Assembly: GCA_000965745.1 (NCBI GenBank) | Contig: CP009479.1 | Location: 928,001 to 992,000, forward strand | DNA: 64,000 nucleotides | Source of the DNA: an uncultured archaeon | Lineage (GTDB): Archaea; Thermoplasmatota; Thermoplasmata; Thermoplasmatales; Thermoplasmataceae | Direction: 5' to 3' | Part shown: piece by piece, positions 38,450-59,190 of the stretch | How the letters are laid out: each line of letters starts with the position of its first letter | Numbering within the stretch: position 1 is the first letter of the stretch | Notes under the pieces: model-generated | Told to the model about the DNA's origin: nothing | The model's database searches: none | What the model saw: the letters and a program-made list of their open reading frames with translations, nothing else | Program-made: the position numbers and the translations under genes

Positions 38450-40003
38450 TTATATTATTTTTTTATGGGCATCGTCTATGGCCTCAAATGCGGCATTTCT
38501 CCCGGATAATCCTGACACCCCGCCTCCGGGATGGGTAGCTGCGCTGCACATATATAAGCCTGTAAGAGGGGTTCTATATTTGCTGTATCCGGGGAAAGGC
38601 CTAAGCGCCATCATCTGGTGCACGGTTGGCTGCCCGAATACCGGGTCTCCATTAATCACGTTAGCATTCTTAGATTCAATGTCCTGCGGGCTCATCACGA
38701 CACTCTTAAGAATGGAGTTATTTATGTTTGGGGCATATTCCGCAAGCCTGTCCATCGATATCCTGTAAATTTCTTCTTTGGCATCCTTGGACCACTCTTT
38801 TCCGCCAACCCTGGCAGGTGCCCTCACAAAGTTCCACATTATGTGCTTTCCCGGGGGAGCCCTAGTCCCGTCAAAAATGGTTGAATTATTTAATGTCATG
38901 AATGGATGTTGCGGGATTCTTCCTGTTGTAGAGTCGTTGAAGGCTCTTGAAATCTCATCTACCGATTCCCCAATCTGCACCATTCCCGCCTCACTGGCTT
39001 CCTCTGCAATATAATTGGGCGCCTCACCAAGCGCGGCGTGTATCATAATCTGAGTAACATCGGAATATTTGAAATGGTCAACCTTACGTAAGAAGCTTTC
39101 AGGAAGTGATGAATCTTGCACTATCTTTTTGAAAAGTGCCTTAGGCTCTATATTTGAGATAATCCCTCGCTTTGCGGTGAATGATTTGCCGCTTCTGGTT
39201 TTTATTCCAGTTGCTCTTCCAGAATTCACCTTGACCTCTACAACCTCGTCTCCAATAACGAATTCCCCCTTGAGTGTTCTGATATATTTCTCAAAAGCAT
39301 TTGTGAGTGTGTTCATTCCACCAATGGGTATGGAAGACCCTCTTTCCTGGAGGAGGCCTACAAACGTTATCGCCAGCAATGCTCCTCCTGCGCTTTCAGG
39401 CGAAAGAGGGGCATGGTTGGCAGCCCATATTGCGTAAAAAGCCTTCAATTCTTCAGATTCAAATGTCTCGTCCAGCCAATCCCTTACAGACATGAATGAT
39501 AGTCTCATGAACTCCAGCCCCTCCTCATTTTCTTCGAGAAGGGCCATCGTATTGGAATAGTCTGAAGGTGGTGATGAAAAGCTCGCCTCCATCATTTCCT
39601 GTACGCTTCTGTAGTAATCATGAAGATTCCTGTATGCCAGAGCATCTTTCTTTGAAAACTGCTCAATTGATTTCACAGTTGAATCCAAGTTTCTGTGGAT
39701 TGTTATAGCCTTCCTGCTCTTGAACGGAGTTGACGCAACAACCTCTGGGTCAATGTATCTGTAACCATAATCCTTCAGCCCAAGTTCCTGTTCCACCGGC
39801 CCGAGTTTCCATATGTTTATGGAAGAGGCCAGGACATCGTGGTGAAAACCGGGCAGAGTTATATCGCCCGTTATTGCACATCCGCCAAGATGCTGTTCTT
39901 TCTCAACAACAAGAGTTGAAAATCCCTCTTTTGCCAGATATGCGGCGGCAGCCAGTCCGTTTGTGCCTCCTCCGAGTATTATGAAATCGTAAGCCCCAGA
40001 CAT
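38450..40003 (-). CDS. FAD-dependent oxidoreductase, phytoene desaturase-like (COG1233 type)
   Basis: GGGTNGLAAAAYLA, TLPGFHHD, YRTPLTGLYMCSAATHPGGGVSG. Confidence 0.85.
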   Translation of the reverse strand: MSGAYDFIILGGGTNGLAAAAYLAKEGFSTLVVEKEQHLGGCAITGDITLPGFHHDVLASSINIWKLGPVEQELGLKDYGYRYIDPEVVASTPFKSRKAITIHRNLDSTVKSIEQFSKKDALAYRNLHDYYRSVQEMMEASFSSPPSDYSNTMALLEENEEGLEFMRLSFMSVRDWLDETFESEELKAFYAIWAANHAPLSPESAGGALLAITFVGLLQERGSSIPIGGMNTLTNAFEKYIRTLKGEFVIGDEVVEVKVNSGRATGIKTRSGKSFTAKRGIISNIEPKALFKKIVQDSSLPESFLRKVDHFKYSDVTQIMIHAALGEAPNYIAEEASEAGMVQIGESVDEISRAFNDSTTGRIPQHPFMTLNNSTIFDGTRAPPGKHIMWNFVRAPARVGGKEWSKDAKEEIYRISMDRLAEYAPNINNSILKSVVMSPQDIESKNANVINGDPVFGQPTVHQMMALRPFPGYSKYRTPLTGLYMCSAATHPGGGVSGLSGRNAAFEAIDDAHKKII

Positions 40004-40256
40004 ATAATATCTCCCGATGGCGTAATGTTAACACACGAATATAATTCTTTCAAAAATAGTATCTTCGGCACATAAAAATTTTTGACCAAATCACCAGGTC
40101 TATCGGTTGTAGTTAGAGCGTGTCTGTTTCGAGTGCATAATGCAATCGACGCCCTAAAATCTATAGTACAGAGTGCAATATAACTATTATCAAAACGCAA
40201 TACACTCAAAAGCGAATATTTAAATATAGAGAGACAGATTATATAAGGAGTTATAC

Positions 40257-41672
40257 ATGAAAAGCGGAGATCCCTTAAAGGCATGGCCCGATGTTCCAGT
40301 TAAGGCATACGTGCAGTTAACTGACAACGAGAAGAAACTGCTTGGACGACGACAGAAGATCATTTTGATCTGGAGTATCCTTGCCTCTTTCACCTATGCG
40401 TTAATCTGGTATTGGCTTAATGCAGTAGGTATAAGCCCGAACCCTACGTTGATCTCGGTTGCCCACACATACAGCTTTTCGCCGACACAGATTGGATATC
40501 TTGTATCAGCATTTGCTGCAGGTTTTATCATAACCAATTTTATCTGGGGGCACCTAAACGACAACTACTGGCCATATAGAATTGTGACAGTCGGCCTGAT
40601 AGTGGCTGGACTGACGACATTGATTTTTCCCTATGTACACAGTCTCAGTGGCATGATTGCAATAAGGCTGGTAGAGGGAATATTCAACGGTGCTGCCTGG
40701 TCCGGTCTGGTCAAGACCGTCCAGCTCTGGTTCCCCATTGAGAAGAGGTCAAGATACCTCGGAATCATGATAGCGGTTTACAGCTGGGCTATTTCTGCCG
40801 ACGAACTTCTGGGGCAGTCTTTCATGGCTGCAACGGGAGGATGGCAGGAATGGGCAATCATAGTCGGAATCCTAGGGCTTGTTGTTGGTGCAATCACCTT
40901 TTTCACGGCAAAACCATACGGTCCGATGGTAGGCCTTCCACATCTTGACTGGGGAGACGTACCGCCTGCTAAGAACATGACCTTCAAGAACGTATCAGTG
41001 GCTCTATACAAATTCAGATGGATGATCCTGGCAATCCTTTCCGGTTTCGTTGTAATTGGAGGTGCCAATGTCATTAGTGCTTTCTACATACCGGACGTTC
41101 TGGGAGCAATACACCATATGACCGGCCCGCAGATCGGACTTCTGGCAACTGTGTGGGGAGTAGGTCAGGGAATCCTGATACTTATATTCGGCCCACTTAG
41201 TGACAGGCTCAGAAAGAGAGTGATATTCATCAAGATTGGACTCGGAGGATCAGTTCTGGCAATGATTGGTGTGATTTACGCAGCATTGACTCCGGGGCTC
41301 TCGATGCCAATGATGTACCTGATCACAATTTCAACCGGCTGGCCCTTCCTGATCGCAGGCCCGGTTTTTGCCCTTCTGGCTGACAGGTACGGGGTCCAGA
41401 TGGTCGGTGCAGCTTCTGCCCATTTTGAAGGTTTTGGAACTGGTGGAGGTGCGTTTGTACTCCCGCTCATAGTGGGGGGAATGTCTGCATCCACAGCATT
41501 TGGCGTGACATCACCGTATCCATGGGTGGTAATGGCGGCAATATTCTTCGTGATATTCCTGTTCTGGCTGCCACAGAAAGACTATACTGTTTCCCAGTCT
41601 CTTGTGGACGTTAAGACCCTGGAAAAGGAGAAGAGAGAGAAGGAAATAGAATTCGGCCTCGTGGAAGATTAG
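40257..41672 (+). CDS. MFS transporter
   Basis: 12-TM pattern; IRLVEGIF, VQLWFPIEKRSR, GPLSDRLRKR. Confidence 0.85.
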   Translation: MKSGDPLKAWPDVPVKAYVQLTDNEKKLLGRRQKIILIWSILASFTYALIWYWLNAVGISPNPTLISVAHTYSFSPTQIGYLVSAFAAGFIITNFIWGHLNDNYWPYRIVTVGLIVAGLTTLIFPYVHSLSGMIAIRLVEGIFNGAAWSGLVKTVQLWFPIEKRSRYLGIMIAVYSWAISADELLGQSFMAATGGWQEWAIIVGILGLVVGAITFFTAKPYGPMVGLPHLDWGDVPPAKNMTFKNVSVALYKFRWMILAILSGFVVIGGANVISAFYIPDVLGAIHHMTGPQIGLLATVWGVGQGILILIFGPLSDRLRKRVIFIKIGLGGSVLAMIGVIYAALTPGLSMPMMYLITISTGWPFLIAGPVFALLADRYGVQMVGAASAHFEGFGTGGGAFVLPLIVGGMSASTAFGVTSPYPWVVMAAIFFVIFLFWLPQKDYTVSQSLVDVKTLEKEKREKEIEFGLVED

Positions 41673-41681
41673 TTACTCGGC

Positions 41682-41712
41682 GAAAGCGGAAACGCTTTCC
41701 ACACTATATTTT
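41682..41712 (+). terminator. GNRA-loop hairpin after the MFS gene
   Basis: GAAAGCG-GAAA-CGCTTTC followed by a T-rich stretch. Confidence 0.45.
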
Positions 41713-41823
41713 TAATAAAACAATCACTTTTTTATTAATTAAGTATTTTACTCCCGGAATCCAGCAGAAAATGCTATTTGCAAAAGCTTTATATTTTTAA
41801 AGGTAAATCGGTATAAGAAAGCA

Positions 41824-42639
41824 ATGAGTTACAAGTATGACTTCGATCTGGAAAGAAAGGAACCTTATTCACCACAGGAGTTTATTGATCTCATGGGGAA
41901 TATTGCTGAAGAAAGGTGGGCAGGAATACACCATCCGCTAGTCAAGAAATTCCTCAAGGGTGAGCTGTCTAAGGAGCAGCTCAAGATCTGGGCAATACAG
42001 GAGTACTGGTTTTACAAGGGACCATCATACTGGTCTGCGGCTGAAGCTGCGAATGCACCCACACTATTGGATCAGCAGATACTCATGGACCCGCTTGTCA
42101 CTGAGATGGGAACAGGCGAGAAAGAATCCCACGTCTCTCTCTACATTAAATTCTGCAAGGCACTTGGGGCAACCGAAGATGAAGTAATCAACACGCCGCT
42201 TCTCCCAGGGACAGTTTCTGGAGTGATGGAATTCTACAACATATGCAAATTTCTTCCACTTCCCGAGGCCCTTGCCGCTGAAAAAATAGCCGGTGAAAAT
42301 GTCAATAAGATAAGGCACGAAAAGTATGTGGAAGCCTACAAGAAATATTACACATTTGTTCCAGAAGATGCAATGATATTCCATGCGGAACACGTTGAAG
42401 AAGATGTTGGGCACACACAGATAGGCCAGTACCTTGTCAAGAAATACGCGACCTCAAAGGAAGGGCAGAACAGAATGTGGGAAGCAGAGGTAAGATTCCT
42501 GGCACTCCAGTGGGTCCTTTACGATTCCATCTACAGAGTTGCCGTAGAAAAGGAGGACGTCCCAACGTTCAAAGTAAGCCAGTTCTTCCCGCTCCCCTAC
42601 TTCGACACCAATGACATCCCCGTTCCCGAATTCGACTGA
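41824..42639 (+). CDS. heme-oxygenase-like diiron oxidase (TenA/PqqC/CADD fold)
   Basis: HHPLVKKFLKGELSKEQLKIWAIQEY; CADD-like ligand pattern TEMG...ESH, GEN, EHVEEDVGH. Confidence 0.8.
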   Translation: MSYKYDFDLERKEPYSPQEFIDLMGNIAEERWAGIHHPLVKKFLKGELSKEQLKIWAIQEYWFYKGPSYWSAAEAANAPTLLDQQILMDPLVTEMGTGEKESHVSLYIKFCKALGATEDEVINTPLLPGTVSGVMEFYNICKFLPLPEALAAEKIAGENVNKIRHEKYVEAYKKYYTFVPEDAMIFHAEHVEEDVGHTQIGQYLVKKYATSKEGQNRMWEAEVRFLALQWVLYDSIYRVAVEKEDVPTFKVSQFFPLPYFDTNDIPVPEFD

Positions 42640-42643
42640 ATGA

Positions 42644-43444
42644 ATGGTGAATCCTGAAATGGCCGAAGTGAAAGGGAAACTGGAAAACAGGGTTGCGATA
42701 GTAACAGGAGGAAATTCCGGCATAGGACGAGGCATCGCTCTTGCTCTGGCGAAAGAAGGCGCATCTGTCGCCATTGGCGACATAGTCGACACACCAAGAG
42801 AGGGTGGAAAGGATACAGCATCGGTGATCAGAGACAATGGCGGGAAAGCCATTTTTGTCAAGACTGACGTATCGGACGAAAAATCCGTGGAAAATCTTGT
42901 GGAATCGGCAGTAAAGGAGTTAGGCAGTCTAGACATCATGGTCAACAACGCAGGGATAACACTCATGAAAAGCGCCCTCGACACTAGTGGAGACGAATTC
43001 CTCAACGTCCTGTCTGTAAACGTGAAGGGGGCATTCCTGGGGTCAAAATATGCCCTGAAGCACATGGTCAGGGCCCAGAAAGGGAAGATTATCAATCTTG
43101 CGTCCAACTTTTCTTACAACGCCCTTCCTAACCTTTCCGCGTACGTGACATCCAAGACTGCTGTACTGGGGCTCACCAGGGCACTTGCAGTGGAGTACGC
43201 GCCGGTGGGTATAAACGTGAACGCCATCTGCCCGGGAGCAACTAAGACGGAATTCACCAGGCCATTCTGGGGAAACAAGGAAGGGCTTAGCGAACTCAAG
43301 TCAAGAACGCCTCTGATGAAGAACGGGGAATTCCTGGTGAAGCCTGAAGATCTTGGGAAGCTTGCAGTTTTTCTTGCATCTGATGATTCCGACATGATAA
43401 CTGGAGAGGGAATCCTGGTAGATGCCGGCTGGAGCGCAATGTAG
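42644..43444 (+). CDS. short-chain dehydrogenase/reductase
   Basis: VTGGNSGIG, NNAG, YVTSK. Confidence 0.92.
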   Translation: MVNPEMAEVKGKLENRVAIVTGGNSGIGRGIALALAKEGASVAIGDIVDTPREGGKDTASVIRDNGGKAIFVKTDVSDEKSVENLVESAVKELGSLDIMVNNAGITLMKSALDTSGDEFLNVLSVNVKGAFLGSKYALKHMVRAQKGKIINLASNFSYNALPNLSAYVTSKTAVLGLTRALAVEYAPVGINVNAICPGATKTEFTRPFWGNKEGLSELKSRTPLMKNGEFLVKPEDLGKLAVFLASDDSDMITGEGILVDAGWSAM

Positions 43445-43536
43445 AAAAATTTTCCAAAAAAATATTTTTTTTTCAAAAGCACACCGGCCATCCTACATAA
43501 TCACATTTTAGCATGCTCTTGTAATCGCTGCTTCTA

Positions 43537-44400
43537 ATGGTCGATAAAAATTTAAGCCCTTCTCACCTTAAAGCAGATATGAGCACTGAGAGCAAAGCAG
43601 AAGACATTATCAGAATGGTGTCTGAAGCCAAGGTCTATGACTTGGGACAGCCTTACTGGAAGGGAATGCCTGTACATCCTGCCGACCCACCCTTTGTTTT
43701 CTTCCTGTACAGGTACCACGAGCACACTGCAAAACTCTTCAAGGATATAGCCCCGGGTTTCGCCGACTCGATCGGATACATGACTTCCTCCATGCACGCC
43801 GGAACCCATCTGGACATGCCGGTCCATATGTCAAGGAACCTCAAGGTGATGGGGGAGGACATAACAAAATACGAGGACGACAGAGGCTATGTCGATGTTC
43901 CCGAAAAGCTTCCCACAGTAGACAGAATTAAACCGATAGTTAAGCGCGCAGTGCTGTTTGATGTACCAAAGACCAAGAACCTGGACATTCTGGACGAGAG
44001 GTATGAGATAACACCCGAAGACCTTGAAAAGACTCTTGAATCGGAGAATGTTGAGTTGAGGCCGGGGGACTGTGCATTGATAAGAACTGGCTACTCGAGA
44101 TTCTTTGAAACAGATGCTGACGCATACCTGCACAAGTTCGCAGGGCTCGGGGCCAAAGCAGCCCAGTGGCTTGTTGACAAAGGGGTATCACTCGTGGGCA
44201 TAGACAACCTTGCTGCCGGCGTTCCGAAGCCTTTCGAGGTGCACAACATCATACTTACGGACAATGGAAAATTCCTGATGAAGAGCCTGATGCTTGAAGA
44301 TCTTGCAAAGGACAGCAGGTACGTTTCCATGGTCGTGGTCTCCCCCCTCAGGATAAAAGGCGGAGAAGCATCCCTTGTAAGGCCAATAGCTATCGCCTGA
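43537..44400 (+). CDS. cyclase family metal hydrolase (kynurenine formamidase/isatin hydrolase-like)
   Basis: HAGTHLDMPVH, LIRTG, PLRIKGGEASLVRPIA; ATG at 43579 may be the true start. Confidence 0.88.
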   Translation: MVDKNLSPSHLKADMSTESKAEDIIRMVSEAKVYDLGQPYWKGMPVHPADPPFVFFLYRYHEHTAKLFKDIAPGFADSIGYMTSSMHAGTHLDMPVHMSRNLKVMGEDITKYEDDRGYVDVPEKLPTVDRIKPIVKRAVLFDVPKTKNLDILDERYEITPEDLEKTLESENVELRPGDCALIRTGYSRFFETDADAYLHKFAGLGAKAAQWLVDKGVSLVGIDNLAAGVPKPFEVHNIILTDNGKFLMKSLMLEDLAKDSRYVSMVVVSPLRIKGGEASLVRPIAIA

Positions 44401-44541
44401 AAACAAACCCCATTTTTATACACATCTCATTTTTTGCCCTCTCTCCGAACCGGGTTGCAAGTTTCTTTTCTCTTCCGGAATTATGCTCAGCCAAAGCACA
44501 AAATTATTACATATAATCCTTCTATTCCAACTGGTGATACT

Positions 44542-45759
44542 ATGACTTCAGAGACAGGCAAACAGTATTATGGTGATGATTGGTGGGTCAGCCCCTTCAA
44601 TTCGGTCGGCAACGATGAGATGAAAGTCAAGCTTCCTAAGAATGTACAGATTCATGACGTTACTCTAAGGGATGGAGAACAGACTCCCGGGATAGTATTC
44701 AACAAAGACGACAAGGTAAACATATCAAGGGCATTGAGCGAGATAGGCGTCCACAGGATTGAGGTCGGGATGCCGGTCATATCAAAGGAGGAGAAGGACG
44801 CAATAAAAACAATAACTTCAGAGAAGCTCTCGTCCAAGATATTCACACTTGCAAGGCTTATAAAAAACGATGTTGATCAATCGGCAGAATCGGGCGTGGA
44901 TGGCGTCATCCTTGAAACCCCTCTGGGAACCCCAAAGAGGAAGCAGCTCGGATGGTCTGTTGAAAAAGCAATGGACCTCACACTTGAAATGATCGACTAT
45001 GCAAAATCATACGGCCTCTTTGTATCGACTTTTGGGGTTGACACAACGAGAACCGAGGAGGATATTTACATGGATTACATCAAGGCGGTCACAAAGACAA
45101 AGGCAGACTCGATCACACTGGTGGACACATTCGGCTGCATAACATACGAAGGAATGTCATATCTTGCGGAGAAAGTTTCAAAGCTGACAGACAAGCCTCT
45201 TGAGGTCCACACACACAATGATTTCGGCCTTTCAGTGGCATCCTCCTTTGCTGCGGTGGCAAAGGGCGCTTCAACGGTCCATGTCGCAGTGAACGGAATT
45301 GGCGAAAGAACGGGGAATGCTCCACTTGATGAGATTGCGACGGGCCTGAAGTACCTCTACGGTATCGACACCGGAGTTAAGCTGAACAAGCTCTTCGAAC
45401 TGTCAAGGATGGTAGAGAAAAGATCTAACTTCATGCTTCCAAGCAACAAGCCTTTCGTGGGTACAAGGGCATTTGCAAGGGAAAGTGGTATATCTGTGGC
45501 CGGATGGGCAAAATTCAACCTTGGTTCAGAGCCAGTGCTTCCCGATGTTGTAGGAAACAAACACGAGGTAGTCGTGGGGAAGAAGAGTGGAAAGGGCTCA
45601 ATCGAGTACAAACTCAAAGAGCTTAGCCTATGGAATGACAACATCAAAGAGGAACAGCTTGAAAAGCTAATGATGATGGTAAAGGACAAGGCTCAGGCAA
45701 CCAAGAAGGAAGTGTCTGAGGAAGACTTCAGAAAATTTGCCGGGGAAGTCCTCTCCTAA
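44542..45759 (+). CDS. DRE-TIM metallolyase (homocitrate/isopropylmalate synthase-like, no regulatory domain)
   Basis: HDVTLRDGEQTPG, EVHTHNDFG, NGIGERTGN, GKKSG; ATG 44542 follows GGTGA. Confidence 0.85.
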   Translation: MTSETGKQYYGDDWWVSPFNSVGNDEMKVKLPKNVQIHDVTLRDGEQTPGIVFNKDDKVNISRALSEIGVHRIEVGMPVISKEEKDAIKTITSEKLSSKIFTLARLIKNDVDQSAESGVDGVILETPLGTPKRKQLGWSVEKAMDLTLEMIDYAKSYGLFVSTFGVDTTRTEEDIYMDYIKAVTKTKADSITLVDTFGCITYEGMSYLAEKVSKLTDKPLEVHTHNDFGLSVASSFAAVAKGASTVHVAVNGIGERTGNAPLDEIATGLKYLYGIDTGVKLNKLFELSRMVEKRSNFMLPSNKPFVGTRAFARESGISVAGWAKFNLGSEPVLPDVVGNKHEVVVGKKSGKGSIEYKLKELSLWNDNIKEEQLEKLMMMVKDKAQATKKEVSEEDFRKFAGEVLS

Positions 45760-45884
45760 TTTTTACCACATCTATATTCAATTTTTTCTGAGGTACCTAA
45801 ACCTCACCGGAATTTTGTCAAACTTCAGTATAATGTAATGGCATCTTTTAAATAACCAGTTTCAATTTTCTGTCCGGTGAAATT

Positions 45885-46730
45885 ATGAGTTGGGGAAAAT
45901 CTCCGGGAAGCCCGGATGTTCAGGAAGAAATTGACTGGAAAAGAAAGCAGACCCCTCCTGGAAAGAGGCTGGATGGACAGTATGCACTTGTAACTGGAGC
46001 ATCCAGGGGCTTTGGTAGAACCATCGCACTTGCTCTTGCAGAAGAAGGGGCACATGTGGCAGTCAACTACAACAGGTCCAAGAATGACGCAGAGGAAGTC
46101 GTTAAGGAAATTCAGTCCAAGGGGGTCAAGGCCATAGCTGTCCAGGCAGACATAAGGGACAGGAAGCAGGTTATTGCAATGGCAGACAAGGTCTGGAGCG
46201 AATGGGGCCGACTCGACATTCTCATCAACAATGCCGGTGAGACTGCTGCAAGCATGCAGTCATGGAGAGACATGGATGATGAGATAATAGATGAAACACT
46301 TGACCTTGATGTGAAGGGAACATTGTACTGCCTTCACGAATTTGGAATGAGGATGCTGGACAAGCAGAAAGAGGGCACAATAGTCAACGTTGCATCAAAT
46401 GTTATCGTAACAGGAAGCCCGAGATCACCAGTATATGCTGCTGCAAAATACGGAATAATCGGTCTGACAAAATCATACGCACTGGCATTCGCGCCGTATG
46501 TAAGGGTAAACGCAATGGCACCGGGATACATGGATACCCCTTCCCTCAGATCCAGGAAGGACTGGACTGATGACAGAAGGCAGTTTATGGTCAGCCAGAC
46601 GCCTCTGAGATCAATAGGCAAACCGGAAAACATAGCCTACACTGCAGTATTCCTGGCATCACAGGACTCTTTCCACATGACTGGAAACACGCTTCTCTGT
46701 GATGGCGGATTTGGAATGGTAGGAGCTTAA
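45885..46730 (+). CDS. short-chain dehydrogenase/reductase
   Basis: VTGASRGFG, NNAG, YAAAK. Confidence 0.92.
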   Translation: MSWGKSPGSPDVQEEIDWKRKQTPPGKRLDGQYALVTGASRGFGRTIALALAEEGAHVAVNYNRSKNDAEEVVKEIQSKGVKAIAVQADIRDRKQVIAMADKVWSEWGRLDILINNAGETAASMQSWRDMDDEIIDETLDLDVKGTLYCLHEFGMRMLDKQKEGTIVNVASNVIVTGSPRSPVYAAAKYGIIGLTKSYALAFAPYVRVNAMAPGYMDTPSLRSRKDWTDDRRQFMVSQTPLRSIGKPENIAYTAVFLASQDSFHMTGNTLLCDGGFGMVGA

Positions 46731-46771
46731 CCCTTCTTTTTATTTTCTAATTTTTACATCAGGTGAAAAAA

Positions 46772-48046: not shown

Positions 48047-48197
48047 AGTCGCCAAAAAGGAGAGTTTTAGAAACTCCCAATTTTAATTTTTTTTCAATAA
48101 ACCACAAAATACCTGTTTCTATGCATTGATATATAAACGGGACCTTATATGTAATAGTTCGAAATACGAAAGATTATAATGAAATCAGAATCTTTAT

Positions 48198-49610
48198 ATG
48201 GCAAGAATTCGTAAAACAGCCATGGTTGATGAACCTGAAAAAGTATCTGAGAAGGAACTTAAGGAATTGGAGAAGGCCGCGAAAGAGGAAAGCGGCGGAT
48301 ACATAATATTCCTTCTTGTAGTTGTTTACTTGGGGTGGGGGTTAATCAATACAGACTCGAATCTGATATTGATTCTTTCAGGTCCAATTTTGAGTGCTCT
48401 AGGGTTGACATTGCAGCAATTCTCGTACATTGTATCGGCAGGATTCGCTGCGAGTTTCGTCCTCAGTCTGTTTCTGGGTCCACTGGGGGACAAGTTTGGA
48501 AGAAGATTTGTGCTTCAGCTCACGCTTGTTGGGACTGCGTTCTTTTCGGTACTGCAGTACTTCATCAACAGCTTCCTGAGCTGGTTCGGCATCAGGCTGG
48601 GAGCAGGCGCTTTCACTGGTGGTGAATGGGGTGCAGGTGCTACGGCCCTTTCCGAGACAGTCGACAAGAAGTACAGGGGTTTTGTCCTCTCAATAATGCA
48701 GTCGGGCTGGGTTTTTGGATATGGTCTGGCCAGTGTGATTTCACTGTTCGCAATAACAACATTCGGGGCCGCAAACGGATGGAGGATTGCTTTCCTGTTC
48801 GCCTTCCTGCCTGCAGTTCTCGTGCTCGCATTGAGGTTCTATGTGAAGGACCCTGAAAGGTTCAAGCATCTGAAGGACGTCGCTGCGGCCAAGAAAAGCG
48901 GAGACCAGGCAGTCCTAGCTGACCTTCTTACAAGGCACAAGGTAGATATTGAAAAGATCACCATGCCAAGCTACAGGCAGCTCTTCTCAAAGGATCTCGT
49001 GAGGATGACAATAGTACTTGCATTCTGGAACTTCATAACAACCGGGATAGCAATTACATCCAACACCTTCCAGCCAACATACTTCGAAGCTCAGTACTCC
49101 TTCGACCAGGTAACAACAATGTTCCTGATTGTTTCATTTGCAGGAATAATCGGGTATATCGCCAACGGTGTGCTCAACGATCGTATCGGTGCCAAGTACT
49201 CCATAATGATATTCGCTGCTATTGAGGTACTGGGCATACTCTTCCTGACATACTCAACAACCAACATTGTGAACCTGTATATATTCTACATAATGTTCTT
49301 CCTCGCAGAAAACGGTCAGTTCTCTGGTCTGATAAGGATGAATACCGAGAATTTCCCCACGAGGGTCAGAGTTACAGGTGCAATATGGGGTGGGGCTTTC
49401 TGGAGCCTTGGACAGGCAGTGTGGCCGCTCATTTTCGGTCAGGCTCTTGCAGTATTCGGTGTTTTCTCTGCAACTGGGATAAATATAGGGGCGTTCAACA
49501 ACGCATGGCTTTACGTTGAGGTATTTCCGGAGATAATTGCCATCATCATATTCTTCCTGGTCATGAAGAACACACCGCCAAGGAAGGAGCTCGAAGAGAT
49601 CGCTGTTTAA
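48198..49610 (+). CDS. MFS transporter (aromatic acid/sialate:H+ symporter-like)
   Basis: GPLGDKFGRR, GGEWGAG, QSGWVFG, ENFPTRVR. Confidence 0.85.
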   Translation: MARIRKTAMVDEPEKVSEKELKELEKAAKEESGGYIIFLLVVVYLGWGLINTDSNLILILSGPILSALGLTLQQFSYIVSAGFAASFVLSLFLGPLGDKFGRRFVLQLTLVGTAFFSVLQYFINSFLSWFGIRLGAGAFTGGEWGAGATALSETVDKKYRGFVLSIMQSGWVFGYGLASVISLFAITTFGAANGWRIAFLFAFLPAVLVLALRFYVKDPERFKHLKDVAAAKKSGDQAVLADLLTRHKVDIEKITMPSYRQLFSKDLVRMTIVLAFWNFITTGIAITSNTFQPTYFEAQYSFDQVTTMFLIVSFAGIIGYIANGVLNDRIGAKYSIMIFAAIEVLGILFLTYSTTNIVNLYIFYIMFFLAENGQFSGLIRMNTENFPTRVRVTGAIWGGAFWSLGQAVWPLIFGQALAVFGVFSATGINIGAFNNAWLYVEVFPEIIAIIIFFLVMKNTPPRKELEEIAV

Positions 49611-49677
49611 GTTTTGGAAAACCAAAACACCATTTATTTTTTAACTTACCTCTGATTATAGCGAAGGAGTTGTACAG

Positions 49678-50457
49678 ATGAGCGATGACGGGAAAGAGAT
49701 AATTTTCAAGGTACAGGGGAACTGCATAATAGTCGAGATAAACAGGCCCGAGAAGAACAATGTGCTGAACAATGAAATCAGGAAAGAGATCGTGGATTTT
49801 CTTGAAAAGTACAGGGAGGACGGGAAGATCAAGAGTGTCATATTTACAAGCAACGGCAAGAATTTCAGCGCCGGTGCAGACTTAAACAACCTTCTGTCAC
49901 TGGATGAGACTTCTGTAAAGGAATATACAGGATTCGTGAAGTATTTTCTCGAATTTATACAGAATTACCCAAAGGTTACAATCGGTGCTGTTCATGGAAT
50001 AGCAGTTGGGGGCGGTGTCGAACTTCTTCTTGCTCTCGATCTTGCAATTGCAACTGAAGATGCGAGATTCGGCCAGACTGAGCTTAACGTCGGCCTTATT
50101 CCAGGAGGCGGAGGAACACAGAGGCTTCCAAGGGCAGTCGGTGTAAGGAAGGCAAGGGAAATGATTTTCACAGGAAGGCTTATCAAAGCAGATGAAGCCT
50201 ACCAGTATGGCCTTGTCAACAGGATAGTTCCAGAGGAGTCGCTGATGGATGAAGCCCTGAAACTTGCTGAAAGAATCGGCGAAAAGAGCTCGTTGTCAAT
50301 TGCATTGGCAAAGAAGGCAATCAACGATCAATGGGCACCGTTAACCAACTCATTCGACCTGGAATCGCAGCTTTATGCAAGGATACTTCTTGAAGACGAC
50401 GGAAAAGAAGGCATAAGAGCGTTTCTGGAAAAGAGAAAACCAAACTACAGGGATTGA
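49678..50457 (+). CDS. enoyl-CoA hydratase/isomerase (crotonase) family
   Basis: FSAGADL, AVGGGVEL, FGQTELNVGLIPGGGGTQRL, AFLEKRKP. Confidence 0.92.
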   Translation: MSDDGKEIIFKVQGNCIIVEINRPEKNNVLNNEIRKEIVDFLEKYREDGKIKSVIFTSNGKNFSAGADLNNLLSLDETSVKEYTGFVKYFLEFIQNYPKVTIGAVHGIAVGGGVELLLALDLAIATEDARFGQTELNVGLIPGGGGTQRLPRAVGVRKAREMIFTGRLIKADEAYQYGLVNRIVPEESLMDEALKLAERIGEKSSLSIALAKKAINDQWAPLTNSFDLESQLYARILLEDDGKEGIRAFLEKRKPNYRD

Positions 50458-50478
50458 AAAATAAAAACAGTGGTAAAT

Positions 50479-50910
50479 CTACTGTTTCTTTACCATTATA
50501 GTGTGCTCTACTTCCATGACTTTATCGCCATTCTGGTTGAAGACATCTGAATGTAGGGTAACTATTCCGTCTTCCTGCCTTTCTCTTTTTTCCTTGACGG
50601 TGGATTCACAGGTTATTGTATCCCCTATCTTTACGCTCTTTTTTGCCTTGAAGCTCGATCCAAGAAGGGCCACGAACCCCTTCTCAAACGGAGCGCTTGG
50701 AAACAGATAAATCAAGCCTGTAGCCATTGAGGCAGTCAGATACCCTGGCGCAATCCTGCCGCCGAATGAAGTTTTACTTGAAAATTCTTCATCAAGAAAC
50801 AGGGAGTTATGAGCGCCGGTCATGGTTGAGAAGAGAACTATGTCTGCTTCTGTGATGGTTCTGCCCTTGGACTTCTCCTTGAAATCATCCGTAAACTCTT
50901 CAAAATACAT
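50479..50910 (-). CDS. MaoC family (hot-dog fold) dehydratase
   Basis: GRTITEADI, FGGRIAPG, VKIGDTI. Confidence 0.85.
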   Translation of the reverse strand: MYFEEFTDDFKEKSKGRTITEADIVLFSTMTGAHNSLFLDEEFSSKTSFGGRIAPGYLTASMATGLIYLFPSAPFEKGFVALLGSSFKAKKSVKIGDTITCESTVKEKRERQEDGIVTLHSDVFNQNGDKVMEVEHTIMVKKQ

Positions 50911-51188
50911 TATGGAAGAATGGTCAGGAATGATAATAGCTTTTCCGGTACCAGCTGTTGCATTGATGGCCTGTGAGGCAAGAGCATCCCAAGGACGCTC
51001 TGTACATCTGTCAGGCTGTCGGAATACAAGTCAGGGATCGAACCACTCAAAAAAACCCCATTCCAAAAAAGGGAAATGCCAATTCTGGAACTCAATGATA
51101 TAATAATCGAACGGAATCAATACACTAACCACTGCTTATTAGCACCTGGGACTGAAAAATATTTTAACAGCAAAGGACATTCCATACT

Positions 51189-52052
51189 ATGAGACCTAGA
51201 CCTTTTTTGCTTCATAGGCCTAATACACTCAAGGAGGCTTCTGAATTGCTTTATTCCCACGAAGACGCGAAGCCCCTTGCAGGTGGACAGAGCCTTATTC
51301 CAATGATGAAGCTCAGAATTTATTCACCAGAGGAAATTGTAATGATCGGCCATCTTCCGGAGATGCAGCCCGGGGTTAAGCAGGAAGGCAGCACCATTGT
51401 GATTAATTCTATGACTACGCATGATATGGTGCACCATAACGAACTTATATCGGAGTACCTCCCCGTTCTCTCAGAGGCTGCGGCGGCAATCGCCGACCAG
51501 CAGATCAGAAACAGGGGGACAATAGGCGGAAACATAGCCCACGGTGACCCCTCAACAAACCTGTCGGCGGCACTCCTTGCTCTCGATGCAAAAGTTCTTG
51601 CCAGCGGAAAGGACGGGCAGAGGGAAATCCCCATCGACGAATTTTTCCTTGATCTCTTCACAACAGCTCTAGAGCCCGGTGAAATAATTACGGGATTCAA
51701 GGTTGACATACCTAAAAATTCCAGGCAGAAATTCATGAAAATAACGCGCTCGGACACTGCATTCCCGCTGGCTTTCGTTGCGGTGAACATCCAGCTTTCA
51801 GATGGTGTAGTGAAGGACGCCAGGATAGGACTTGGAGTTGCTGCCCCCACACCCATAAGGGCTACTGAAGCTGAGGAATACCTGAAAAACAAGCAGCTCA
51901 ACCAGGAAACTATTCTCAAGACTGCAGAAATGGCAACAAAGGATCTTGAGCCTCCGGGAGATGTTCATGCGTCTCCTGAGTACAGGAAGAACCTGCTCAA
52001 TGTATTAATGAAAAGATGTCTCAACTCACTTTTGGAGGAGGTGAAACAATGA
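51189..52052 (+). CDS. molybdenum hydroxylase FAD subunit (CoxM/CutM-like)
   Basis: [29 protein letters not shown]. Confidence 0.92.
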
Positions 52053-52543
52053 TGGAAGGTTTGGTAAAAGTTTCAATTGATATTAACGGCAAGAAATACA
52101 CGGATGATGTTGAACCGAGATTGCTTCTCGTGGATTTCATAAGGGATATTGCAAGGCTGAAAGGAACACACATCGGTTGTGATACCACAAGCTGTGGTGC
52201 TTGCACGATTCTCATCGACGGGATGTCAGTGAAGTCCTGCACAATGTTTGCAGTGGAAGCAGATGGCAGAAAGATACAGACAGTGGAGTCCCTGGCGACA
52301 GACGACAAGCTCCATCCCCTGCAGGAAGCTTTCTGGGAGCATCACGCACTCCAGTGCGGCTACTGCACACCCGGGATGCTGATGTCATCAACATTCCTGC
52401 TTAGCAGGAACAGCGACCCTACAGAGGAGGAAATCAGGGAAGGAATTGCAGGAAACATTTGCAGATGCACAGGATATATAAACATCATAAAAGCAGTAAA
52501 GGACGCAGCAGGTAAGATAAACGCCGGAAAGGAGACGGAGTGA
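52049..52543 (+). CDS. molybdenum hydroxylase 2Fe-2S subunit (CoxS/CutS-like)
   Basis: [24 protein letters not shown]; ATGA overlap at 52049 with GGAGGTGA RBS. Confidence 0.93.
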
Positions 52544-52549
52544 TCCCGG

Positions 52550-54982
52550 ATGCCTCAAAAGGCTGAGTTGGTTGTAGAGAAAGCACCCGAAACAACGGCG
52601 GCTTTCAAGTACATGGGTACGCCCGTCAAAGTAGCAGAGGACTTGATTCCTCTGCAGGGAAAGGGCCAGTATCTGGATGATGTGGAGATTCCCGGGACAC
52701 TTTACATGGCGTACACCCTGTCTCCATACGGGCATGCAAAGATCAAGAAAATAGACACCAGCAAGTGCCTGGAACTGCCGGGTGTTCATTACGTGCTCAC
52801 AGGGGAAGAACTGAAGGCAAACATGGATCCTTACATGCAGATCGCCCCACCACCATCTGGAAACCTGAAGGACTACCCGCTTGCGGTGGACAAAGTAAGG
52901 TACTACGGTGAACCGGTGGCAGCGGTAGTTGCTTCTAACGCATACATTGCCGAAGATGCAGCTGAGCTTGTGGATGTTGAATACGAACCCCTTCCGGTGG
53001 TGACTGATGCTGAAGATGCTCTCAAAGAAGGGTCACCTGTTCTCCACGACTCGGTTGGGAACAACCTGGTCTGGAGAGGTGTCTGGGATCTTGGCGATGC
53101 AGAAAAGGCGCTGAAGGAAGCAGATTATGTTGTTGAGGATACGGTTAAGACTCACAGGTATGCTGCAGTCCCGCTTGAAACCAGCGGAGTGCTGGCAACA
53201 TACGACCAGAGTGTTGACACCATAACAGTATACAGTGTAAACCAGATGCCCATGTTCTCGCTCCCAATCATCTGTGGAGCCCTGAGGATGCCACCGTCAA
53301 AATTCAGGATGATTCTCCCCCCAAACGTAGGTGGAGCATTCGGTGGAAAGATCATCAACTTCACGCACATTACAGTGGTAGCATATCTGTCAAAATTGCT
53401 GAAAGCCCCTGTGAAGTACGTGGAGAACAGGTCAGAGAACATAATGTCCGGAACGCACAATAATGAGAGAATTTTCCATGTGAAACTCGCGGTCAGGAAA
53501 GATGGACGTGTGACAGGGGCATACATGAAGGCTGTGGACAATTGTGGGGCTTACCCAAGATATGAGCCTGCAGGAGCTGTAATCTGGGCTCAGGTTGTAC
53601 CGGGCATCTACGACGTCCAGAACGTCTACGTTGATTTTAGCCAGGCAACAACGAACAAAGGCCCGACAGGGCCTGTGAGGGGTTATTCGAGAATACAGCA
53701 CAATTTCATGTGGGAAAGGATGATGAACCGTGTTGCGCAGAAGCTTAACATGGATCCGGCTGAAGTAAGAAGACTCAACCTCATCAAGGCCGAGCAGATG
53801 CCTTACGAGGGACCTTCGAGGACTATATATGATGGAGGGGACTACCACAAGGCCTTTGACACTCTCCTTGACACCATTGAGTACGGAAAGTGGAGAGAGA
53901 AGCAGAAAGAGGCGAGAAAACAAGGAAAACTCATAGGAATAGGCCTCTCTGCGGTCATTGACTCAGGGGCAAACAATTTCGCGCAGGTTAAGATCATAAA
54001 TCCGCACTTTCCAGCCTCAGGAAGCATGGAAGTGGGCCTGGTTATGATCGACCAGTTCGGAACACTGGTCGCCAGGACTGGAACTACAGACCAGGGGCAG
54101 TCCCATGCAACAACCTTCGGCCAGATAGTTTCAGAAGTGTTCAACACGGGCCCTGAGAATGTGGTTTTCCAGCAGGGTTTTGACTCAATAAGCAACGTTT
54201 GGGCGGCATTCTCAGGAGCGTATGCAAGCAGAAGCGCAGTAATGGCTGGAACAGCACTTTACTATGCTGCAATTAGGCTTAAGGAAAAGGTTCTTACAAT
54301 AGCAGCCCACGCTCTTGGAGAGCTCGAATCAGACCTTGAAGCGAAGGACGCCGCCGTTGTGAGCATGAAGACTGACAAGAAACTTCCTCTCGGGGATATT
54401 GCCACCCTAGCCTGGCTTGACGTGAACAAGCTTCCAGAAGACATGGAGCCGGGTCTGGTCAGCTATGCAGTCTACAAGCCGGACTTTACATACAATATGC
54501 CTGATGAAAAGAAGAGGGTCAACAACACCCTGACCTATTCATATGCAATACACGGAACAGTCGTGGAAGTTGATCCTGAAACTTACGAGATGAAGATACT
54601 GAAGCATGGTGTTGTTTCAGATCCGGGTTTCATGATCAACCCGCTGGTTGTCGAAGGCCAGGAGATGGGTGCAACACTTCACGGAATAAGTGCTGCCCTG
54701 ATGGAAAATCTTGAGTACGATGAAGATGGAATACTCTTGACATCCAACTTCTGGGACTATCTTGTAGCAGGGGCGAAGCACATGCCAGACATAGACATGA
54801 AAACAATAGTAACAAGATCCACCAGTTCAGTTCTCGGTGTGAGAGGGGTCGGAGAAGGTGGAGGAGGACCGATAGGTTCAATAGTGAATGCTGTGGAGGA
54901 CGCTCTTCAGCCACTCGGAATAAAGCTATTAAGCTCCAACCTATCTGCAAACGAGTTATATTCCAAGGCCAACAAAAAATGA
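52550..54982 (+). CDS. xanthine dehydrogenase-family molybdopterin subunit (CoxL-like, not a CO dehydrogenase)
   Basis: VGGAFGGK, QGQSHAT, AYASRS, RGVGEGG; active-site loop GPVRGYSR. Confidence 0.9.
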   Translation: MPQKAELVVEKAPETTAAFKYMGTPVKVAEDLIPLQGKGQYLDDVEIPGTLYMAYTLSPYGHAKIKKIDTSKCLELPGVHYVLTGEELKANMDPYMQIAPPPSGNLKDYPLAVDKVRYYGEPVAAVVASNAYIAEDAAELVDVEYEPLPVVTDAEDALKEGSPVLHDSVGNNLVWRGVWDLGDAEKALKEADYVVEDTVKTHRYAAVPLETSGVLATYDQSVDTITVYSVNQMPMFSLPIICGALRMPPSKFRMILPPNVGGAFGGKIINFTHITVVAYLSKLLKAPVKYVENRSENIMSGTHNNERIFHVKLAVRKDGRVTGAYMKAVDNCGAYPRYEPAGAVIWAQVVPGIYDVQNVYVDFSQATTNKGPTGPVRGYSRIQHNFMWERMMNRVAQKLNMDPAEVRRLNLIKAEQMPYEGPSRTIYDGGDYHKAFDTLLDTIEYGKWREKQKEARKQGKLIGIGLSAVIDSGANNFAQVKIINPHFPASGSMEVGLVMIDQFGTLVARTGTTDQGQSHATTFGQIVSEVFNTGPENVVFQQGFDSISNVWAAFSGAYASRSAVMAGTALYYAAIRLKEKVLTIAAHALGELESDLEAKDAAVVSMKTDKKLPLGDIATLAWLDVNKLPEDMEPGLVSYAVYKPDFTYNMPDEKKRVNNTLTYSYAIHGTVVEVDPETYEMKILKHGVVSDPGFMINPLVVEGQEMGATLHGISAALMENLEYDEDGILLTSNFWDYLVAGAKHMPDIDMKTIVTRSTSSVLGVRGVGEGGGGPIGSIVNAVEDALQPLGIKLLSSNLSANELYSKANKK

Positions 54983-54994
54983 GGTGAAAAAAGA

Positions 54995-55435
54995 ATGAAA
55001 TTTGAAGGATCCAGAGAAGTAAACACGAGTGCGCAGGCAGTATGGGATTTCCTGACAAACCCAAACAACATGGCGGAGTGCCTTCCGGATGCAAAGTCAC
55101 ATGAAGTTGTTGACGACAAGACAATAAAGGCACAACTGAAGGTGGGAGTAGGCTTCATCAAGGAAGTGTTTGACTCCACAATCAGCTATTCCGAAGTCAC
55201 GCCTGACTCAAAGGACATGAAAATCAAAATAGACGCAAAAGCCAAGGCAAACACTGCCACTATAAACATCGATGTCCATGTGGACGGGGCAGACTCAGCT
55301 GCAAAACTCCAGTGGACTGTCGATGCAGTTATGGCTGGAAGACTCGCCAGCATTGGTCAGAGATACATCAGCAAGGTTTCTGACAAGGTCATAGAACAGG
55401 CTTTTGAGTGCATGATGTCCAAGCTTGCACCATAA
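54995..55435 (+). CDS. CoxG/SRPBCC-domain accessory protein
   Basis: VWDFLTNP, ECLPDA, GRLASIGQR. Confidence 0.85.
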   Translation: MKFEGSREVNTSAQAVWDFLTNPNNMAECLPDAKSHEVVDDKTIKAQLKVGVGFIKEVFDSTISYSEVTPDSKDMKIKIDAKAKANTATINIDVHVDGADSAAKLQWTVDAVMAGRLASIGQRYISKVSDKVIEQAFECMMSKLAP

Positions 55436-55583
55436 ACCATTTTTTTCTATTTAATCTGGACAATCAAAGAGTTTATGTTTTTGATGATTCTTGGTTTTAA
55501 TATTTTCGTATTCAGTCTTTCTGCTTAGGCAATAATTTGCTAGGTAAATTTATAGATAAAACAATCATTAAGACGCTGATAAT

Positions 55584-56288
55584 ATGAAAATTGGCACTTT
55601 CTTGACCCTTGGCTCTCCCGAGATATGTGAGATGCTCGGTAATGAGATAGATTTTGCAGTTATAGATGCCGAGCATGGTGTGCTCATGGACAACACTTTG
55701 ATCTCGGTCTTGCGGGCCATTCCCTCTGAGATTACGCCATGGGTTCGAGTGAAAAGACCAGAACTGGCCAGCCTCGCCTTGGATCTTGGTGCAAAAGCTA
55801 TCCTTATTCCACAGGTTCGTTCGATGCAGGATCTCAACTCTGCGGTGGAGTCATTCTACTACCCACCCAAGGGTCAGAGAGGATGGGGTCCTGGAAGGGT
55901 TTCCAGATATGGAATGGACATGATGAAGATAATCCAGGATGAAGCTATAAATGAGCTTTGGGTTCAAATCGAAACAAGGGAAGCACTTGAAATGGTGGAA
56001 GACATTGCCGCCCGTGAGGAGATCGATGGCCTTTTTGTCGGTCCCGGGGATCTTTCGCTTGCCCTTGGACACCCGGGCGAATGGAGCAATGAAGAACTGA
56101 AAAGTTCCACAGAGAGAATATTTGAAGCTTCTAGGAAGAATGGTAAAAAATTCGGGATATTCACGGGCAATCCAGCCCAGGTTAGCTTCTGGGATAAGAA
56201 AGGGGCTGATCTTGTAGTTTTCGGTGCAGACTCTATATTTTTCATAGAAGGCTACAGGAACCTTATGAAAGAAGCAGGGAGGCAATGA
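55584..56288 (+). CDS. HpcH/HpaI class II pyruvate aldolase
   Basis: IDAEHG, YPPKGQRGWG, VQIET, FVGPGDLS. Confidence 0.9.
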   Translation: MKIGTFLTLGSPEICEMLGNEIDFAVIDAEHGVLMDNTLISVLRAIPSEITPWVRVKRPELASLALDLGAKAILIPQVRSMQDLNSAVESFYYPPKGQRGWGPGRVSRYGMDMMKIIQDEAINELWVQIETREALEMVEDIAAREEIDGLFVGPGDLSLALGHPGEWSNEELKSSTERIFEASRKNGKKFGIFTGNPAQVSFWDKKGADLVVFGADSIFFIEGYRNLMKEAGRQ

Positions 56289-56289
56289 A

Positions 56290-57279
56290 ATGGCAAAGAT
56301 TGTATTGAAAACAGATGGCGATTTCAGAGACGTGGGAATGGAGAGGAAGCTACTGCAGGATGCTGGATATGAGTTGGTTGAGAGAAACTGCCTCACATCC
56401 ATGGACGTTCTCGAGGCCTGCAGGGAACTGAATCCTGATGCACTGATTGTACTCAAAGCACCAATCAATCAGGAAGTCATGGCTTCTGCGACTTCGGTCA
56501 AGGCAATCTCACGGTACGGGATCGGGCTTGACATGATAGATATGTCCGCAGCTAGCGAAATGGGAATACCAGTTGCATACGTGCCAGATTACTGCGTTGA
56601 CGAGGTGAGCAATCATGCCATTTCTCTGATGTTTTCTGCCGAAAGGAGACTACTCATTTTCGACAGGAAGGTCAGGAAAGGTGACTGGTCCATGGACGGG
56701 ATAGCTCCTGTGCACAGGTTCAGTGAAAAGACGCTAGGTTTACTTGGTTTTGGGAGACTTTCCCGTGCGGTTGCACAAAAGATGAAGGCATTTGATGTAA
56801 GACTGACGTCATTTGACCCACTTGTCAAAGGAGAGGAAATGGCGGCTCTAGATGTGGAGAAAGCAGAAACTATCGATGAATTGCTTGCTAATTCGGACAT
56901 AATCAGCATCCATGTTCCTCTTACTAGACAGACTCACGGCCTCATAGGAAAAGAGGCGCTGGAAAAAATGAAAAAGGGCTCTGTCGTAATAAATACATCT
57001 AGAGGCGGTATTGTTGACCAGAAGGCACTTTTGGAATCTATTAAGACAGGGCATATTGCGTCGGCGGGGCTGGACGTCTTTGAGGAGGAGCCAATTAATC
57101 CATCAGATCCAATACTAAAAGAATCCAGAATTGTACTTTCTCCACATGTTTCATATTATTCAGAGGAAGCACTTTCGCAGGTGCAGAGTGACACAGCCCA
57201 AGGGATTGTGGATATACTAAGGGGAAAAAGGCCGAGGAACCTTGCTAATCCCGAAGTGTGGGGCAAGAGGCGTACATAA
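56290..57279 (+). CDS. D-isomer specific 2-hydroxyacid dehydrogenase (CtBP/SerA-like)
   Basis: VPDYCVDEV, GLLGFGR, INTSRGG, LDVFEEEP, SPHVSYYS. Confidence 0.92.
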   Translation: MAKIVLKTDGDFRDVGMERKLLQDAGYELVERNCLTSMDVLEACRELNPDALIVLKAPINQEVMASATSVKAISRYGIGLDMIDMSAASEMGIPVAYVPDYCVDEVSNHAISLMFSAERRLLIFDRKVRKGDWSMDGIAPVHRFSEKTLGLLGFGRLSRAVAQKMKAFDVRLTSFDPLVKGEEMAALDVEKAETIDELLANSDIISIHVPLTRQTHGLIGKEALEKMKKGSVVINTSRGGIVDQKALLESIKTGHIASAGLDVFEEEPINPSDPILKESRIVLSPHVSYYSEEALSQVQSDTAQGIVDILRGKRPRNLANPEVWGKRRT

Positions 57280-58166: not shown

Positions 58167-58247
58167 AGAATGCTTAAAACTTCATTGTAAAGGTTTAAAT
58201 CGACTGATGAATGAGAAACCAGTTAAATACCTCCTTATGCTGTACAC

Positions 58248-59048: not shown

Positions 59049-59190
59049 CTCATTCTTTCTTACCTGACCGAATAGGGCAAGCTGTAAGGTTAACTGGCTT
59101 AATAGGGTCAAGTTAAACTATTTAAACAATTCATCAAAACGTATTGCGTCTTGGAAAAGAATTAATATCATACCCATTATATAGCATGCC

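Follow-up and report, generated by a model that had tools for sequence, protein, structure and literature searches.

What pathway is encoded by the genes at positions 38450–57279 of a 64,000-nucleotide stretch of DNA (the window; contig CP009479.1, positions 928,001–992,000, assembly GCA_000965745.1) from an uncultured Thermoplasmataceae archaeon? A sequence-only reading had proposed an unrecognised route for the ring hydroxylation, cleavage and deacylation of an N-heteroaromatic compound. We examined the locus and its relatives and found that the homologues occur together in different archaeal orders as well as in bacteria, and that no characterised pathway was matched; the genes thus represent one conserved, unassigned pathway, most likely for N-heteroaromatic catabolism. 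This catabolism probably runs independently of O2, whatever the order of its steps.

Gene content and conservation of the core

All of the open reading frames (ORFs) named by that reading were present where it had placed them, with the Pfam families it had given. The co-oriented run that it described stood as to gene content, although not as an uninterrupted run, as a MaoC-fold gene that it had missed lies on the minus strand between the crotonase gene and coxM. The core consists of M20, SDR2, the cyclase (CycA), DRE-TIM, crotonase, MaoC, MFS2 and CoxMSL, together with an FAH-family gene and CoxL2. The last two are located 2–5.5 kb past the window end (genome 993855–997491; positions given on locus L111), and hence they had not been seen. 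The core genes, listed with the CoxG-like gene, are:

43537..44400 (likely start 43591), plus strand: CycA, cyclase-family amidohydrolase (PF04199); core
44434..45759 (likely start 44542), plus strand: DRE-TIM metalloenzyme of homocitrate-synthase fold, non-canonical (PF00682 and PF22617); core
45885..46730, plus strand: SDR2, NADP(H)-type, proposed ring reductase; core
46763..48046, plus strand: M20 hydrolase of the NaaA (5-nitroanthranilate aminohydrolase) type; core
48198..49610, plus strand: MFS2 transporter; core-associated
49678..50457, plus strand: crotonase with both catalytic Glu (PF00378); core-associated
50479..50910, minus strand: MaoC-fold protein without the hydratase Asp/His dyad (PF01575); core-associated
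51189..52052, plus strand: molybdenum (Mo) hydroxylase FAD subunit (PF00941/PF03450)
52016..52543, plus strand: Mo hydroxylase 2Fe-2S subunit (PF01799)
52550..54982, plus strand: Mo hydroxylase large subunit CoxL1, loop RGYSR; not a CO dehydrogenase
54995..55435, plus strand: CoxG-like accessory protein (PF06240)
L111:8855-9907: FAH-family hydrolase; core
L111:10086-12491: CoxL2, second Mo large subunit; core

The cluster is conserved, and a set of about ten genes is common to hot-spring archaea and some bacteria. The M20 proteins form a tight clade of about 46 members (52–100% identity) from Thermoplasmata, Marsarchaeota, Sulfodiicoccus, Conexivisphaera and some Proteobacteria. Among 103 Thermoplasmataceae genomes (the host and 102 others), M20 and DRE-TIM were detected in an identical set of 7, namely the host and the same 6 of the 102 others. 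Orthologues of CycA, of a heme-oxygenase-like (HO-like) protein and of an FAD oxidoreductase were each found in 4 of the 102, all within the M20-positive 6. These 6 genomes cover 4 genera and are not independent; the co-occurrence in the host family is far above chance. The closest cluster-bearing relatives of the host are Thermoplasmataceae metagenome-assembled genomes (MAGs), and the overall distribution is patchy (7/169 genomes).

For the neighbourhood counts, ORFs of 40 loci, 37 of them with M20, were clustered at an identity of at least 42%; many of these loci are short or related, and the counts are not independent. Around M20 we found CoxL2-like genes in 25 of the 37 loci (a group that also merges other Mo subunits), SDR2 in 22, CycA in 18, FAH in 15, crotonase in 11, MFS2 in 10, CoxL1 in 9, DRE-TIM and MaoC in 8 each and the HO-like gene in 4. 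In Marsarchaeota, the core appears as one block in another order (MaoC, FAH, CycA, SDR2, M20, CoxLSM, crotonase, MFS2, DRE-TIM, CoxL2), and in Sulfodiicoccus it is divided into two blocks with 40 kb between them. Of 401 Thermoproteota genomes sampled, 20 had CycA, and one of these holds DRE-TIM, FAH, CycA, SDR2, crotonase, M20 and CoxL2 together. The core genes also recur, reshuffled, on other archaeal contigs and partly on bacterial-looking contigs. CycA was found in 0 of 401 sampled genomes from the phylum of the Burkholderiales MAG, which marks the bacterial version as a rare one.

The public assemblies of Sulfodiicoccus acidiphilus, a cultured species, show frameshifts (L020:80-1371, L160:14002-16496): the complete one has both M20 and CoxL1 split in two frames. 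As M20 is intact in the other Sulfodiicoccus assembly, its break is probably a sequencing error.

The M20 protein as a relative of NaaA

The M20 protein had been read as a deacylase. This could not be maintained for an ArgE/DapE-type enzyme, since Asn125 is invariant at the position of the bridging Asp and the His of the C-terminal site is absent; the score against TIGR01910 was 155 (cut-off 217.6). The best PDB match was NaaA, both by sequence (5K8M, E 5e-51; next match 1e-16) and by fold (5K8N). The invariant residues H86, D88, N125, E159, E197 and R280 align with NaaA H86, D88, N124, E158, E196 and R289, respectively, and the metal-site roles of these NaaA residues are presumed here. R280 corresponds to R289, the residue that is changed to Ala in the R289A structure. 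The position of NaaA R373, which we take to be the nitro-binding Arg, is occupied by Tyr (Tyr365) or Ser in the M20 homologues. NaaA hydrolyses an aromatic amine (PMC10306065) and is one of the few natural enzymes thought to act by aromatic nucleophilic substitution (PMC11903332). From its conserved residues, the M20 protein is predicted to be a deaminase of a non-nitro substrate, in which it would cleave a C(sp2)-NH2 bond located beta to a carboxylate.

The cyclase, DRE-TIM, crotonase and MaoC proteins

In CycA, H87, H91, D93 and H97 are conserved in 120/120 homologues and H236 in 114/120. The N-terminal His/Asp metal motif and the catalytic His of the KynB/isatin hydrolase cyclases are present in 120/120. 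K249 replaces the second-metal Glu (KynB Glu173) in all 120, and the same column holds Glu in two paralogous cyclases. The fold is nearest to 5IBZ and the isatin hydrolases. In KynB, the metal ligands are His/Asp residues and Glu173 (PMC4243253), and a PF04199 cyclase was proposed to hydrolyse the N1-C6 bond of a pyridine ring (PMC6214936).

At a separate locus (L154:7918-17866), a CycA paralogue (43%) is separated by 8 kb from a true enamidase homologue of archaeal origin (PDB 2VUN, E 3e-124), whose neighbours are a luciferase-fold oxidoreductase, an aldehyde dehydrogenase and an ABC transporter; it is possible that this locus encodes an archaeal nicotinate-type pathway.

As for the DRE-TIM label, the fold and the metal site (R43, D44, E46, H223 and H225) were confirmed, and the synthase Glu/His pair is lost. 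V166, R313 and S318 stand in place of Glu, His and His, and in all 12 cluster copies the Glu is Val and the two His of subdomain II are Arg and Ser/Ala. We take the Glu after strand 5 and the subdomain II His, which are retained in housekeeping paralogues, to be catalytic. All scores were under the NCBIfam cut-offs. An aldolase, lyase or decarboxylase is predicted as likelier than a synthase.

The crotonase is canonical, with the enoyl-CoA hydratase Glu pair (E115 and E135) conserved. The MaoC protein has Ala and Phe at the Asp/His dyad positions in 11/11 orthologues, and with the dyad lost an itaconate-type MaoC hydratase step was rejected.

The Mo hydroxylases and the FAH-family protein

CoxMSL make up a xanthine-oxidase-family set, with FAD, 2Fe-2S and molybdenum cofactor (Moco) subunits all present. 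The active-site loop of CoxL1 is RGYSR in 9/9 sequences, with no Cys. An aerobic CO dehydrogenase was rejected for CoxL1, as the Cys loop is absent and the score is 452 bits against a cut-off of 991; CoxL2, in whose closest clade Val/Ile replaces the loop Arg, is likewise not a CO dehydrogenase. CoxL1 is only distant kin of nicotinate dehydrogenase. The matches of the FAH protein include oxo-acid decarboxylases.

SDR2 and a possible F420-dependent alternative

SDR2 looks NADP-specific, since a basic residue of the NADP type occurs in the Gly motif of 29/30 orthologues. At two bacterial-looking loci (L113:3889-12186 and L114:4154-15504), the genes read oxidoreductase-FAH-M20-fbiC-CycA in one run, with fbiC placed between M20 and the cyclase. 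No SDR was found within 10 kb at either. The oxidoreductase is nearest to the F420 enzyme Mer (below the cut-off), and the absence of SDR2 where this Mer-like protein and F420 genes are present suggests a ring reductase. L114 holds the full F420 synthesis set (cofC, cofD and cofE, with an F420:NADP oxidoreductase), and its type occurs on many contigs, a sewage metagenome among them. The other locus adds an altered-type DRE-TIM and Moco accessory genes. SDR2 and the F420 enzyme would both supply hydride to the ring.

Proposed pathway and alternatives

From the gene content, the conservation and the active-site residues observed, we infer the direction, the order, the substrate class and every reaction of the following scheme, in which a pyridine or related azine carboxylate would be opened without O2 (probability roughly 0.45). 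MFS2 would import the substrate, and CoxMSL1 would add a water-derived OH beside the ring nitrogen, yielding a pyridone. The ring would then be reduced by SDR2 with NADPH, or in some bacteria by the Mer-like enzyme with F420H2, and the lactam hydrolysed by CycA. The NaaA-like M20 protein would release ammonia from a beta-amino-acrylate (H2N-C=C-COOH, the same arrangement as in anthranilate), and the FAH protein would decarboxylate or cleave the beta-oxo acid. CoxL2 may introduce a second ring OH or oxidise a semialdehyde, and the crotonase and the non-synthase DRE-TIM protein may add water to the carbon chain and cleave it. The scheme is favoured by the isatin hydrolases, near CycA in fold, which open a lactam. 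As the sequence-only reading had remarked, the cluster contains no ring-cleaving dioxygenase. Genes for a CoA-transferase, E1, thiolase/DUF35 and acyl-CoA dehydrogenase recur near cluster copies.

Several points weigh against this scheme. The core has no conserved CoA ligase, MaoC is without its dyad, and DRE-TIM would be superfluous in a simple nicotinate route. The link to enamidase consists of one locus and a paralogue. The F420 evidence comes from two related loci whose M20, FAH and DRE-TIM are 34–38% identical to ours, so their substrate may differ. We assume that SDR2 and the F420 enzyme work reductively; both families also oxidise alcohols.

It is less likely, though it deserves consideration, that M20 acts early as a true aromatic (nucleophilic aromatic substitution, SNAr) deaminase on an ortho-amino heteroaryl carboxylate, with the O2-independent catabolism otherwise the same. 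Such a substrate could derive from an opened fused pyrimidine or an oxidised vitamin fragment (pterin, flavin or deazaflavin, deazapurine, thiamine pyrimidine). NaaA itself works by such chemistry, the carboxylate Arg (R280) is kept with Tyr or Ser at the R373 position, and in two genera the Thermoplasmataceae island has retained an NCS1 permease and two amidohydrolases; however, these were not found in distant copies, and small rings leave the crotonase and DRE-TIM little work. An indole/tryptophan route is improbable. There, the Mo enzyme would yield an oxindole, CycA would open it, DRE-TIM would cut the side chain and M20 would deaminate a 2-aminoaryl acid, which agrees with the closeness of CycA to the isatin hydrolases, with kynureninase-like and KynB-like genes nearby in three lineages and with hydantoinase, thiolase/DUF35 and CoA-ligase genes near some copies. 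However, the kynureninase-like gene occurs in 23/103 genomes, mostly without the cluster, no tryptophan dioxygenase scored above the cut-off, and the cluster has no benzene-ring cleavage enzyme; moreover, the hydrolytic deamination of unactivated anthranilate is chemically hard.

That the island holds unrelated catabolic units rather than one pathway is true of the periphery, and a second CoA-dependent unit co-locates in several genomes and some M20 orthologues occur without the core. For the core it is quite improbable, as different archaeal orders have M20, SDR2 or the F420 enzyme, CycA, FAH and CoxL2 grouped in many arrangements and on varying strands. A biosynthetic role, in which DRE-TIM would be the condensing enzyme for a cofactor or secondary metabolite, could be suspected from the homocitrate-synthase fold and several altered active sites, but the loss of the synthase Glu/His pair in the cluster copies only, the patchy distribution and the dominance of importers and hydrolases make it very unlikely. 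Equally remote is the oxidative route of the sequence-only reading, with the HO-like diiron enzyme for ring cleavage and an HpcH aldolase to funnel the carbon. The HO-like protein keeps a CADD-type ligand set and occurs in the host family only in M20-positive genomes, and also in Sulfodiicoccus. However, it has 8 close homologues in one 50% cluster, compared with 311 for CycA, and a dozen other cluster copies had no such gene within 10 kb, so it is not the general ring-opening step. The HpcH orthologue was confined to one congener (G107; other matches 32–35%), and the 2-hydroxyacid dehydrogenase had a sole distant match (35%, one locus), which leaves neither as a core carbon funnel. Thiamine pyrimidine, pterin, quinolinate, nicotinate, isonicotinate, deazapurine and indole-acetate were also considered as substrates, and none uses all genes without extra assumptions.

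Accessory genes and neighbouring loci

The remaining genes of the island, whose GC content equals the genome average (46.3% vs 46.4%; genome 2.23 Mb), are:

35998..36855, plus strand: ketose-3-epimerase-like TIM barrel (PF01261); accessory, travels with the FAD oxidoreductase
36878..38350, minus strand: NCS1-like permease (PF02133, weak); accessory, Thermoplasmataceae only
38450..40003, minus strand: CrtI/CrtO-like FAD oxidoreductase; accessory upper module
40257..41672, plus strand: MFS1 transporter (PF07690); accessory, with the HO-like gene
41824..42639, plus strand: HO-like, CADD/PqqC-fold probable diiron protein (PF14518/PF03070); accessory
42644..43444, plus strand: SDR1; accessory, a neighbour of the HO-like gene at all HO-like loci examined
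55584..56288, plus strand: HpcH-type aldolase (PF03328); local addition, non-core
56290..57279, plus strand: D-2-hydroxyacid dehydrogenase; local addition, non-core
57285-58166, minus strand: second cyclase, after the end of 38450-57279

The NCS1 gene, which had been counted within 38450–57279, lies just outside it. The HpcH, dehydrogenase, NCS1 and FAD-oxidoreductase genes each occur in fewer than 3 of the 37 M20 loci.

In the HO-like protein, E94, H103, E158, H190, D194 and H197 are invariant in 7 sequences; we take these six residues to follow the CADD pattern. CADD/PqqC matches are far better than TenA, and thiaminase II was rejected. The protein is predicted to use iron/O2 chemistry, likely in a preparatory oxidation of an upstream substrate. 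MFS1 stays with it in genomes G107, G108, G118 and G157. The best NCBIfam match of the epimerase-like gene is D-psicose 3-epimerase (below the cut-off), and it adjoins the FAD-oxidoreductase orthologue in G108 and G118. Within the host family, this oxidoreductase was confined to M20-positive members, and no match above 36% was found in Sulfodiicoccus. The NCS1 protein is below the TIGR00800 cut-off, and its 68% orthologue in G118 lies beside the FAD oxidoreductase and MFS2-ECH-MaoC-coxMSL.

G118 belongs to another genus. There, the epimerase, FAD-oxidoreductase and NCS1 genes adjoin MFS2-crotonase-MaoC-coxMSL, and the HO-like, SDR1 and MFS1 genes with two amidohydrolases adjoin M20-FAH-CoxL2-DRE-CycA. 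The periphery is thus co-inherited with the core within the host family, not beyond. Both gene groups (HO-like/SDR1/MFS1 and epimerase/FAD oxidoreductase/NCS1) are probably lineage-specific add-ons that serve as upper funnels.

The island continues at window 57285–63350 and L111:6414-8798 with the second cyclase (Glu type), a metallo-beta-lactamase-fold protein, 2 MFS transporters, 2 amidohydrolases and an FMN alpha-hydroxy acid oxidase, of which both amidohydrolases and one MFS are retained in G118. Further on, L111:15478-17313 encodes a KynB-like cyclase and a kynureninase-like pyridoxal phosphate enzyme, although no tryptophan dioxygenase of this genome passed the cut-off; the kynureninase-like gene was rejected as a pathway member, its distribution being independent of the cluster.

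In a Thermoproteota clade (L142-L152), CycA lies amid housekeeping genes, and its sole companions are a family III CoA-transferase and a crotonase. At L009:1755-13153, an M20 orthologue (59%) lies beside hydantoinase A/B, a luciferase-fold enzyme and a Rieske dioxygenase. A second CoA-dependent unit (L162:1762-14256, genome about 540-557 kb) encodes a Mo large subunit, an ornithine-cyclodeaminase-like protein, two acyl-CoA dehydrogenases, a crotonase, acyl-CoA ligases, a thiolase-like protein and DUF35, and parts of it adjoin the core cluster in at least 4 other genomes.

Novelty and significance

No characterised cluster was matched in PDB, NCBIfam, plasmids or the literature, of which mostly the freely available part was covered. 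The plasmid collection held no orthologue above 35% (CycA), 29% (M20), 39% (DRE-TIM) or 43% (SDR2), so no characterised catabolic plasmid was matched. ESM Atlas returned generic names only. The literature, with incomplete coverage, gave nothing on lumichrome, isonicotinate/citrazinate, F420-plus-cyclase or cyclase-plus-Mo clusters, which is weak evidence of novelty.

The pathway logic is known and the enzyme set is not. We tentatively suggest that there is a widespread, undescribed route for a natural N-heterocycle that needs no O2 and draws on several new enzyme subfamilies. Jointly, this would comprise a cyclase with a Lys metal ligand (perhaps carbamylated), a non-synthase DRE-TIM lyase, NaaA relatives with natural substrates and a bacterially acquired F420 synthesis driving ring reduction. 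Heterocycle catabolism is almost uncharted in thermoacidophilic archaea, for which a defined gene set is now available, along with many NaaA relatives in conserved context. In four cases (cyclase, DRE-TIM, MaoC and the CoxL2 loop), a residue change that defines the family predicts an unannotated activity, and the current database labels of these proteins are kynurenine formamidase, acetylornithine deacetylase or homocitrate synthase.

Comparison with known systems

The anaerobic nicotinate route of Eubacterium barkeri uses nicotinate dehydrogenase, a ferredoxin-dependent 6-hydroxynicotinate reductase and enamidase. It resembles the proposed pathway in Mo hydroxylation, ring reduction and lactam and enamine hydrolysis without O2, and differs in its ferredoxin enzyme, for which an SDR or F420 enzyme is proposed here. 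Enamidase converts tetrahydro-oxonicotinate to formylglutarate and ammonia (PMC7356986), a job that CycA and M20 may share here; with the archaeal enamidase homologue as query, tblastn gave no match at E 1e-10 in the 99% complete host genome.

The HO-like protein shares the fold and the six-ligand pattern with the CADD/PqqC proteins, but it scores 76 bits against CADD (cut-off 200) and belongs to a narrow archaeal subfamily with no adjacent pqq genes. The homocitrate, isopropylmalate and citramalate synthases share with DRE-TIM the fold, the Arg-Asp-x-Glu helix, the His-x-His metal site and subdomain II; they have the catalytic Glu and both subdomain II His, whereas DRE-TIM has Val, Arg and Ser/Ala.

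CycA resembles the Pkc/HpoH cyclases, isatin hydrolase and KynB (PF04199) in fold and in the metal motif His-x-Gly-Thr-His-x-Asp-x-Pro-x-His. It differs in the invariant Lys for Glu and shares 18–25% identity with solved structures; unlike Pkc/HpoH-type systems, the cluster has no nicotine-type flavin hydroxylase. Finally, NaaA of Bradyrhizobium JS329 (PDB 5K8M-P) and M20 share the Asn in place of the bridging Asp, the loss of the C-terminal His and the R289-equivalent Arg. They are about 30% identical, R373, Y223 and D160 of NaaA are replaced in M20 by Tyr/Ser, His and Glu, respectively, and the cluster is without the cupin ring-cleaving dioxygenase.

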